A stretch of DNA of 6,824 bases, from positions 1 to 6,824 of IMG/VR virus record IMGVR_UViG_2548876698_000001; one strand, given 5' to 3'. Positions 3,001 to 6,000 of the stretch are shown piece after piece. Position 1 is the first letter of the stretch. Every line of letters starts with the position of its first letter. Source of the stretch: a virus. Lineage: Duplodnaviria; Heunggongvirae; Uroviricota; Caudoviricetes. The position numbers were made by a program.

Positions 3001-6000
3001 TGCAAAAATGCTCGAAACCGATCAGGCGTGGGAAGTGTTCGAAAAACTGGAAGACTGCTATTTCAGCCAGGGCGAGAAAAATACTGGCAAACAAGAGAAG
3101 AAGCTCAACGGGCTTTCCGCAAAAGAAACAGACAGCCTTGTATGGCTGTGGGATTATGCCAACCGCTCACAGGCATTGTTCCGTGAGTTGTATCCCGCAT
3201 TAAAACTGATTCAGTCTGGCTATTCCGGCATATGCCACGACTACGGCTATGAGTTCTCGTATATCATCGGGAGGGCGAGGGGCGTTTTAATTAATCACAC
3301 GCGGGATATAGATATTTATGAGCCTGACGGGCCGACGAACCTTCTGGCATGGGAAAGGCTTAAGAACAAAGAGTTGCCGCCTTCACTGCATCGCTACTGA
3401 CAATTGACAACTTAACAAACCCAGCTTCGGCTGGGTTTTTTATTGCTGAATTTTCAATGTGAGAGGACATGACAATGAATGAGCTGATAAATAGCAATGC
3501 CATCAAAATGACAAGCATTGAAATCGCTGAGTTGGTGGGAAGCCAACACGGTAATGTCAGAATATCAATAGAACGTCTGGCAAAGCGTGGGGTGATTCAA
3601 CTTCCTTCAATGCAAAAAGTTGAAAATAAACAAACAATTAGCCCTGACAAATTCACAAGCGTGTATATATTCGAAGGCGAACAAGGTAAGCGAGACAGCA
3701 TTATTGTCGTCGCTCAGTTGTCGCCGGAATTCACCGCTCGCCTTGTTGACCGCTGGCGAGAACTCGAAGGGGCAACCGCGAAAATACCACAAACCTTTTC
3801 TGAGGCATTGCGCCTTGCGGCCGACCTTGAAGACCAGAAGGCTGAACTGGAGAAACAGCTTGCTCTCGCAGCACCTAAAGTTGAGTTTGCCGATCGAGTT
3901 GGCGAGGCCAGCGGAATTTTGATTGGAAACTTTGCAAAGGTTGTTGGTATTGGTCCAAACAAACTGTTTGCGTGGATGCGCGATCACAAAATCCTTATTG
4001 CTTCAGGTGCCCGGCGCAATGTGCCAATGCAGGAATATATGGATCGCGGCTATTTCACAGTGAAAGAAACAGCGGTCAATACAAATCACGGAATACAGAT
4101 ATCGTTCACCACAAAAATCACCGGGCGTGGTCAACAGTGGCTGACAAGAAAGCTGCTAGATAACGGAATGCTTAAAGTAACAGGGGAGGCTGCTTAATGG
4201 CTAAACCAGCGCGAAGGAAATGCAAAATCTGTAAGGAATGGTTTCACCCGGCATTCTCAAATCAGTGGTGGTGCAGCCCGGAACACGGAACTAAATTAGC
4301 ACTCGAACGACGAAATAAAGAACGCGAAAAGGCGGAAAAAACAGCAGAGAAGAAACGACGACGAGAGGAGCAGAAACAGAAAGATAAAATTAAGATTCGA
4401 AAACTCGCCTTAAAGCCCCGCAGTTACTGGATTAAACAAGCCCAACAAGCCGTAAACGCCTTCATCAGAGAAAGAGACCGCGACTTACCATGTATCTCGT
4501 GCGGAACGCTCACGTCTGCTCAGTGGGATGCCGGACATTACCGGACAACTGCTGCGGCACCTCAACTCCGATTTGATGAACGCAATATTCACAAGCAATG
4601 CGTGGTGTGCAACCAGCACAAAAGCGGAAATCTCGTTCCGTATCGCGTCGAACTGATTAATCGCATCGGGCAGGAAGCAGTAGACGAAATCGAATCAAAC
4701 CATAACCGCCATCGCTGGACTGTCGAAGAGTGCAGGGCCATCAAGGCGAAGTATCAGCAGAAACTTAAAGACCTGCGAAACAGCAGAAGTGAGGCCGCAT
4801 GACGTTCACAGTAAAAACCATTCCTGACATGCTCGTTGAGGCATATGAAAATCAGACCGAGGTAGCCAGAATACTGAACTGTAGTCGCAACACGGTCAGA
4901 AAATACACTGGCGATAAAGAAGGAAAAAGACACGCTATTGTCAACGGTGTTCTTATGGTTCATCGCGGATGGGGTAAAGATACTGATGCGTGATATCCGG
5001 CAGGTTCTTGAGCGCTGGGGTGCATGGGCGGCAAATAACTATGAGGATGTTACATGGTCGCCCATTGCTGCCGGATTTAAGGGACTGATCCCCGAAAAAG
5101 TAAAATCACGTCCACAGTGTTGTGACGATGACGCGATGATTATATGCGGGTGTATGGCTCGCCTTAACAGGAACAACAGCGATCTGCATGACTTGCTGGT
5201 TGATTATTACGTGTTGGGGGAGACGTTCATGGCGCTGGCACGGAAACATGGGTGCTCTGACACCTGCATAGGTAAACGCCTTCACAAAGCGGAGGGGATT
5301 GTTGAAGGCATGCTGATGATGCTGGGAGTGAGGCTTGAGATGGATCGGTATGTTGAGCGTGAATTGCCGGGAGGGAGAACCTCTGTATTTTATCAGCGAA
5401 AAAATAGTTTACGATCGTAAAAATCTGCATATCATGATAAGAGTGGTTACATTGCCACGCTGCTTAACCCGCCGATGCGCGGTTTTTTTTGTACCCAGAA
5501 TCCTGTGAGCTATACGGAAAGTACACAGAAAGGAAGGTGCGACCACAATTAATAACAAAATCTTAAAAATTGCACATGGCACTATTAGTTTTCTAAATAT
5601 TGTGTATTTTTTGTATTGCAGGATGACCCTGTAACGAAGTTTGCGTAACAGCATTTTGCTCTACGAGTTTGCCAGCCTCCCCCAGTGGCTGGCTTTTTTA
5701 TGTCCGTAGCGTCAAAGCAGCAATGTCGCTGGGGCGTCGTGCAATTGGCGTTGAGCTGGAGACTGAACGTTTTGAGCAGACGGTCAGGGAAGTACAGGAT
5801 TTAGTCAGTCAGAACGGATGATATTGCAGAATTAACCGGGTATCAGGTACGCCCCGAAAATTTTAAATGTCTCACAATTCAGACGGTTGACAGTTGTCTG
5901 GTTTGCGGGGAGTTTGTTAAAAGAAACTGGCATGGTGAATCCCCCTGAGCGGAGGGGCATATCAGCGCAGGTGTTTCTACTCTATCCTTTCTGTGCGGGT

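Follow-up and report, generated by a model that had tools for sequence, protein, structure and literature searches.

A toxin-less lambdoid prophage very probably carries a copy of the known small RNA StxS between its late promoter and terminator

The analysed stretch of DNA, referred to as the window (6,824 nucleotides; positions 1 to 6,824 of IMG/VR record IMGVR_UViG_2548876698_000001), belongs to a lambdoid prophage, of which it forms the early-right and late-control part. The genes are arranged in the order P, NinB, Dam, an antirepressor module controlled by isrK/C4, a KilAC antirepressor, NinG, NinH and the antiterminator Q. The Q product matched Pfam family PF06530 (Phage_antitermQ, E = 1.3e-51) and the Q-like PHROG 79, its RefSeq label is 'antiterminator Q family protein', and the DNA of the Q region showed 95.5-98.7% identity to Stx1 and Stx2a prophages. 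The 144-aa class of Q to which it belongs has been linked to the small RNA StxS (PMC7547250). Behind Q and the terminator tR' lie a remnant of a DNA methyltransferase, the RNA STnc100 and nanS-p/DUF6645. In comparison with Stx2a phages, a segment of 1651 bp with ileZ-argN-argO and stx2AB is missing from the window, and the break is located inside the annotated tRNA promoter pT. No tRNA genes were found in the window by ARAGORN, the ileZ-argN-argO cluster of the Stx phages being absent. Among 128 loci, no megablast alignment extended across positions 5800-5900, i.e. over the exact junction of tR', methylase remnant and STnc100, and none of the complete E. coli genomes matched the whole window above approximately 94-97% with full coverage.

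For the annotation of the region behind Q, features of the 933W GenBank record were moved to window coordinates with an offset of 3641 (Table 1). The late promoter PR' was the only sigma-70-like candidate listed nearby by the promoter scan, matching the consensus in 9/12 positions, and it is unchanged across the Sakai prophages Sp5 and Sp15 and the window. Transcription would start at about position 5442, which is 7 nt past the end of the PR' -10 box; the distance from 5442 to 5699 is 258 nt, the same as was measured between PR' and tR' (PMC7547250). Within the first hairpin of the early transcript the window has a T at position 5483, while a G is present in all other alleles examined, and the predicted fold has an energy of -11.5 kcal/mol with the common G and of -6.9 kcal/mol with the T of the window. 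This unique T may affect the share of transcripts reaching tR', and should be counted as a point against the identification given below.

The strong terminator of the original prediction proved to be real. The tR' hairpin has the stem GCCAGCC/GGCUGGC (5671-5677 / 5687-5693), a loop of 9 nt, variable among alleles at 5683/5684, and a U6 tail at 5694-5699. Its energy is -14.5 kcal/mol (z = -3.1), and 0/200 shuffles folded as well. A terminator is present at exactly these coordinates in the 933W GenBank record and the record of phage 7888 also marks a 'rho independent terminator' here, at 258 nt from the start site of PR'. The consensus terminator scan missed tR' because its loop limit was 8 nt.

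Table 1. Features from the Q gene to nanS-p/DUF6645 in window coordinates.
Feature	Position	Strand	Remarks
Antiterminator Q gene, Q933 type	4986-5420	+	144 aa from ATG 4986; mechanical ORF from TTG 4938 gives 160 aa
Late promoter PR'	5408-5435	+	-35 TTTACG, 16-nt spacer, -10 TATCAT (5430-5435); overlaps the end of Q; 933W 'pR'; putative late promoter' maps exactly
Putative qut (Q-utilization site), ACATTGCC	5449-5456	+	933W GenBank feature 'qut; putative Q-utilization'
First hairpin and T-run of the early PR' transcript (+27 to +49)	5468-5490	+	933W 'possible rho-independent terminator'
AT-rich segment of the StxS precursor (StxS-L), probably discarded or processed after cleavage	5540-5625	+	GC 0.31; invariant A-rich core 5547-5570
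RNase E motif GUAUU, predicted cut between 5614 and 5615	5613-5617	+	GTATT at 5613; 5442 + 172 = 5614 fits the published '+173' and the cut between GU and AUU (PMC7547250)
Processed sRNA StxS-S (predicted)	5615-5699	+	5' end 5615 (dRNA-seq / RNase E site) or 5623 (RLM-RACE); 3' end in U-tract 5694-5699; ~74 nt on gels; ends from PMC7547250
Seed CCCUGUAACGAA, complementary to the rpoS leader site of DsrA, RprA and ArcZ	5627-5638	+	Duplex search; mutations of PMC7547250
Intrinsic terminator tR', sRNA terminator with Hfq-type U-tail	5671-5699	+	Fold; 933W and phage 7888 annotation; Term-seq 3' end 258 nt from PR' (PMC7547250)
DNA methyltransferase remnant, last ~38 codons	5708-5821	+	RefSeq pseudo-CDS 'DNA methylase, missing N-terminus'; PHROG 14488/67; downstream mosaic junction of the StxS block
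STnc100	5901-6101		Rfam 15 scan
nanS-p/DUF6645	from 6326		Downstream of STnc100

This element was studied in E. coli O157:H7 Sakai by Sy, Lan and Tree (PNAS 2020, PMC7547250). In that work, dRNA-seq and Term-seq placed the end of the transcript from PR' 258 nt downstream at tR', and the 258-nt RNA was found to bind Hfq (PMC7547250). PR' is constitutive in lambda, the same is predicted for Stx phages, and abundant RNA is made from the unit during lysogeny in phages near-identical to this one (PMC7547250). RNase E cuts between GU and AUU at +173, giving a stable 3' fragment of about 74 nt, StxS, and the RNase E contact peaks at -62 nt from the cleavage site, which corresponds to approximately position 5552 of the window (PMC7547250). 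StxS activates rpoS via the site of DsrA, RprA and ArcZ, with pairing validated by compensatory mutations, and it represses stx1B (PMC7547250). The published lengths are inexact: 258 - 173 leaves 85 nt against 74 nt on gels, and the RLM-RACE end lies 8 nt further downstream.

Alignment of the window with the Sakai alleles showed that positions 5395-5708 differ from stxS1 of the Stx1 prophage Sp15 by a single base, at 5483, which is also the only difference over the 258 nt of the unit. Towards stxS2 of the Stx2a prophage Sp5, 15/258 bases differ (94% identity), with 0 differences within 5626-5699, so that the processed part is the same as in both Sakai alleles; positions 5626-5714 are identical in all three. 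The StxS region is 99.6-99.7% identical to many Stx1a/Stx2a phages, and the 381 bases surrounding the feature, which hundreds of converting phages and prophages of the Stx1a and Stx2a types share at 99.7% identity, were found in 789/5426 complete E. coli genomes. The window thus shares with stxS1 and stxS2 (formerly EcOnc15) both the location, with a 144-aa-class Q before it and the late genes behind it, and the PR' box at the end of Q, qut, the GUAUU site at +173, the rpoS seed and tR' (PMC7547250). Homology extends over the whole 258-nt unit. The Sakai coordinates given in PMC7547250 are shifted relative to RefSeq version 2, with implied offsets of +142 for Sp5 and +135 for Sp15.

Positions 5442-5699 are, with little doubt, the late-operon leader, from PR' to tR', of a lambdoid prophage that resembles Stx phages and has a Q933-type (PF06530) antiterminator, and the terminated transcript is the known sRNA StxS. 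In this analysis the reading is supported by the anatomy of the region, by its sequence identity and conservation, and by the complementarity of the seed. The properties carried over from the published experiments on near-identical alleles would be expression, binding of Hfq, processing by RNase E and the regulation of rpoS and stx1B (PMC7547250), and we infer that this particular copy is expressed. StxS, PR', qut and tR' of the Q933-type Stx phages are not new, as they were already annotated (933W, 1999) and characterised (2020). A scan of the whole window against Rfam 15 (E <= 1) gave no family over 5442-5699, the hits being STnc100, isrK, C4, c4-a1b1 and weak ones at chance level. As Rfam 15 has no StxS model, automated scans will go on flagging StxS as an orphan 'sRNA-like' element.

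For the analysis of conservation, 52 distinct alleles from IMG/VR and reference loci were compared. Positions 5628-5676 are essentially invariant, and divergence reaches 30-60% directly after 5700 and upstream of approximately 5400. When the scan was repeated with the A-rich core as anchor, nearly the same set of loci came back, so that the choice of search pattern does not account for this result. In a contig scan, a 22-mer from the seed region matched only 1/185,579 species representatives, Escherichia sp. MOD1-EC7003, pointing to a StxS element confined to Escherichia-type lambdoid phages.

The region had drawn attention as an AT-rich island at 5540-5640, and this description was confirmed: its GC content is 0.307, the whole window having 0.498, values as low as this occur in only 0.5% of 101-nt segments, and the 101-nt segment with the lowest GC content (0.287) starts at 5517, within the same island. 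The island was proposed to contain a promoter-like motif, TTGCAC-N18-TAAATA, from which an RNA of about 95 nt would start near 5605. The motif is present (TTGCAC at 5570-5575, TAAATA at 5594-5599) but is uninformative as a promoter, as it matches TTGACA/TATAAT in only 3/6 and 3/6 positions, with a -10 box that has no T at position 6. Sites at least as good were counted 601 times on the plus strand and 590 times on the minus strand of the 6.8-kb window, i.e. about 87 per kb per strand, and the motif was not listed by the promoter scan of the window.

A trans-acting sRNA had been one of the two proposed functions, and in the near-identical alleles an Hfq-binding sRNA does end at tR' (PMC7547250), but it starts at PR' and is then processed, instead of arising from a promoter in the island. 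The PR' start lies about 165 nt upstream of the predicted start and 258 nt upstream of the terminator T-tract. The 5' end of the published stable RNA of about 74 nt is 10-18 nt downstream of 5605, and its 3' end is at tR' (PMC7547250).

The direct repeats that had been pointed out in the transcript, GTAAC at 5631 and 5645 and AGTTTGC at 5638 and 5666, also exist but are near chance frequency: a repeated 7-mer occurred in 19% of the shuffles of the 94-nt stretch, and 8 repeated 5-mers were counted where shuffles gave 4.3 on average (P = 0.08). An imperfect hairpin, CUGUAACG...CGUAACAG, has the two copies of GTAAC as its arms, and this repeat falls in the experimentally validated rpoS seed (PMC7547250). 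The statement that no ORF is longer than 3 codons holds for ATG starts (ATG ACC CTG TAA at 5623), while with GTG and TTG starts closed ORFs of up to 10 codons are found.

An independent sigma-70 promoter in the island, either TTGCAC-N18-TAAATA or another -10-like box, would give a primary sRNA of about 85-95 nt ending at 5699. TAAATA at 5594-5599 is conserved, and the Sp5-type alleles have TATATT at 5603-5608, a 5/6 match including A2 and T6, and this box precedes the mapped 5' end (5615) by 7 nt; position 5604 is an A in 49% of distinct alleles. The allele of the window, which reads TGTATT in place of TATATT, has lost the key A at -10 position 2. The -35 part is a minority allele, as positions 5571 and 5575 differ from the window in 72% and 53% of distinct alleles, and Sp5 has TCGCAT in this place yet makes the short RNA. 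Moreover, the noted motif would start transcription at about 5606 and not at the mapped 5615 or 5623. A conserved, above-chance promoter at the right distance from the 5' end was not found in the island. Published results also favour processing: the RLM-RACE 5' end was obtained without pyrophosphatase, i.e. it is that of a TAP-independent product, StxS-L builds up in rne-3071 at 44 C, and expression of StxS returned in the double deletion when StxS-L was supplied from PLlacO-1 (PMC7547250). With these results, a primary transcript from the island is very improbable, and it is the TATATT box of Sp5-type alleles, absent from the window allele, that may add an internal promoter.

The second proposed function was an H-NS-silenced promoter of acquired DNA, or a nucleation site for xenogeneic silencing, without any functional RNA. 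For this, composition is the only argument, i.e. a GC content of 31% over about 100 bp of prophage DNA. The stretch is short, with flanks of about 50% GC, and it is located inside a unit which is predicted to be constitutive by analogy with lambda and gives the abundant lysogenic RNA of the near-identical phages (PMC7547250). Its most conserved part coincides with the mapped RNase E contact, as does its end with the cleavage site (PMC7547250). The silencing reading is unsupported by these data and its probability is close to nil. Since the RNase E contact lies in the invariant A-rich core, the AT-rich island can be seen as the RNase E-accessible middle of the StxS precursor, and not as a promoter. 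An equally negligible chance was given to a protein encoded on the minus strand (5654-5409), where an ORF of 81 codons with ATG start matches phrog_17306, a PHROG of unknown function, over its full length (E = 1.4e-52) and is annotated in some phage records as 'hypothetical protein', but 25/53 distinct alleles have frameshifts or premature stops that break this frame, RefSeq (PGAP) has no gene there, the PHROG match reflects only automated ORF calls in near-identical phages, and the basic and hydrophobic product is as expected of AT-rich non-coding DNA; this candidate was rejected as coding.

Complementarity of StxS to the rpoS 5' UTR was searched with 30-nt sliding segments over the 597-nt MG1655 rpoS leader against positions 5615-5670. 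The top-ranked duplex site was -120..-91, which is the known activation site. The core of the duplex is a perfect 9-bp pairing, UGUAACGAA:UUCGUUACA, flanked by CCC:GGG. The duplex energy (-24.9 kcal/mol) was not better than that of shuffled sRNAs placed anywhere on the leader, 43/100 of which reached it; support for the rpoS seed thus comes from the position of the site and the published genetics, and not from energy. An unconstrained RNAduplex run of StxS-S against the whole leader had returned an unrealistic duplex of 80 nt, and the 30-nt search was used instead. The same leader site is targeted by DsrA, RprA and ArcZ, and for ArcZ and RprA, too, activation comes from processing by RNase E, which sets a 3' fragment free (PMC7547250). 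These three sRNAs are chromosomal and stress-regulated and have no sequence kinship with StxS beyond the seed, in contrast to StxS, which is phage-borne and probably constitutive. The StxS-S part of the window folds at -28 kcal/mol (z = -2.8).

The StxS reading suggests the following sequence of events in a lysogen. RNA polymerase starting at PR' would stop at tR', giving the 258-nt RNA StxS-L, and RNase E would contact its A/U-rich middle, the AT-rich island. A cut at the GUAUU motif, which is present at +173 in the window with cleavage itself being predicted, would then release StxS-S, a 3' fragment of about 74-85 nt that would be stable and bound to Hfq; in stx1-carrying strains, stx1B would also be repressed by this fragment. 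On induction, Q would modify RNA polymerase at PR'/qut, leading to readthrough of tR' into the late genes. Since the 1651-bp segment is absent, such readthrough would here cross the methyltransferase remnant, STnc100 and then nanS-p/DUF6645, with no tRNAs and no stx. The arrangement resembles that of lambda 6S RNA, where in lysogeny transcription from a constitutive late promoter ends about 200 nt further on, and where with Q-dependent antitermination the late operon transcript arises from the same start. This short PR'-tR' transcript shares the late-promoter/terminator/Q logic with the StxS unit, but there is no sequence similarity to StxS, and the Q family is PF03589 in lambda and PF06530 here. 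A trans-acting role dependent on Hfq is, to our knowledge, not established for lambda 6S RNA.

The finding in itself adds little, as the StxS element was already known. It shows an RpoS-activating sRNA that stays intact in a relative of the Stx phages lacking both toxin genes and tRNAs; Stx prophages with StxS differ from the window prophage in carrying ileZ-argN-argO and stx. An intact StxS without toxin genes is consistent with the published view of a benefit for the lysogen independent of toxin regulation, and some non-toxigenic phages also carry StxS (PMC7547250).

In other prophages, e.g. of O103:H2 12009, an intact methyltransferase of 352 aa is found in place of the StxS block, and 16 IMG/VR loci have the block, starting at the first hairpin, behind a Q of lambda type (PF03589), which brings a promoter-like site of its own, different from the one here. 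From both observations, the StxS block behaves as a mosaic module. A tentative and rather doubtful extension would be that the segment of approximately 5466-5710, from the first hairpin to just past tR', is a portable 'leader/sRNA cassette' kept for host-directed activation of RpoS rather than for toxin control. The cassette reading draws on the mosaic junctions on both sides, on the PF03589 Q of the 16 IMG/VR loci and on the window prophage itself, with neither tRNAs nor stx.

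Comparison with Stx2a phages showed that a segment of 1651 bp, comprising ileZ-argN-argO and stx2AB, is missing at window positions 5835-5867, where about 33 bp are present instead. The break point falls within the tRNA promoter pT, as annotated in the Stx phage 933W (window equivalent 5824-5852). The open reading frame starting with ATG at 6326 corresponds to the DUF6645/SASA-family esterase gene (nanS-p), which is located 3' of stx in Stx phages. The window looks like a relative of the Stx phages that carries neither the toxin nor the tRNAs.

Mosaic junctions were observed on both sides of the block encoding the Hfq-binding small RNA StxS, at positions 5466 and 5700-5711. 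In 16 IMG/VR loci (including L106, L107, L108 and L123), the block is preceded by a lambda-type Q gene (PF03589, 250 aa) and by a promoter-like site, TTGCAT-17-TAAGAT, which is unlike that of the window. On the 3' side, the window retains just the last ~38 codons of a DNA methyltransferase gene, which is intact (352 aa) in other prophages.

Comparison of StxS alleles showed that positions 5603-5608 read TATATT in the alleles of the type found in 933W and in Sp5, the Stx2a prophage of E. coli O157:H7 Sakai, matching the -10 consensus at 5/6 positions, and TGTATT in the window and in the Stx1 prophage Sp15 of the same strain. The TATATT box ends 7 nt before position 5615, where the short RNA (the processed 3' fragment of StxS) has its published 5' end. 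It may account for the primary start that dRNA-seq assigned to the region 5' of stx2AB.

At position 5483 the window carries a T, while all of the ~120 other StxS loci examined have a G. This base lies in an early hairpin (5468-5490), labelled as a possible terminator in the 933W annotation; the T extends its T-run to 8 and makes the predicted fold less stable (-6.9 kcal/mol, against -11.5 with G). The T may be either genuine variation or a sequencing error in a homopolymer.

An ORF of 81 codons antisense to StxS was rejected as a gene, since its frame is broken by frameshifts or stops in 25 of the 53 alleles. The family that it matches, phrog_17306, exemplifies PHROG families that arise from spurious ORF calls.

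Features of the window and loci compared with it
Feature	Coordinates	Strand	Details
c4-a1b1 target sites	2471-2523		immunity module
isrK	2484-2558		immunity module; 77 bits
C4 antisense RNA	2585-2669		immunity module; 75 bits
ORF antisense to StxS	5409-5654	-	full-length match to phrog_17306
STnc100	5901-6101		full-length Rfam match; 148 bits, E = 7e-34
Strong terminator	6130-6109	-	GCCCGCG...CGCGGGC followed by T7
ORF (nanS-p)	6326-6824	+	open at window end
L106, stretch compared at the StxS block	12039-12120		locus coordinates
L133, stretch compared at the StxS block	1553-2611		locus coordinates

STnc100, which a 2026 preprint links to the PasD prophage sRNAs, is situated between the methylase remnant and nanS-p and has its own terminator (6066-6095), convergent with the strong terminator on the minus strand. 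Upstream of the latter, an OmrA-B match was found below threshold (26 bits versus a gathering score of 40). The minus-strand region 6102-6190 may represent a bidirectional terminator or an unannotated small RNA. The antirepressor genes, at 2723-3400 and 3469-4197, are preceded by a P1/P7-type immunity module (2471-2669).
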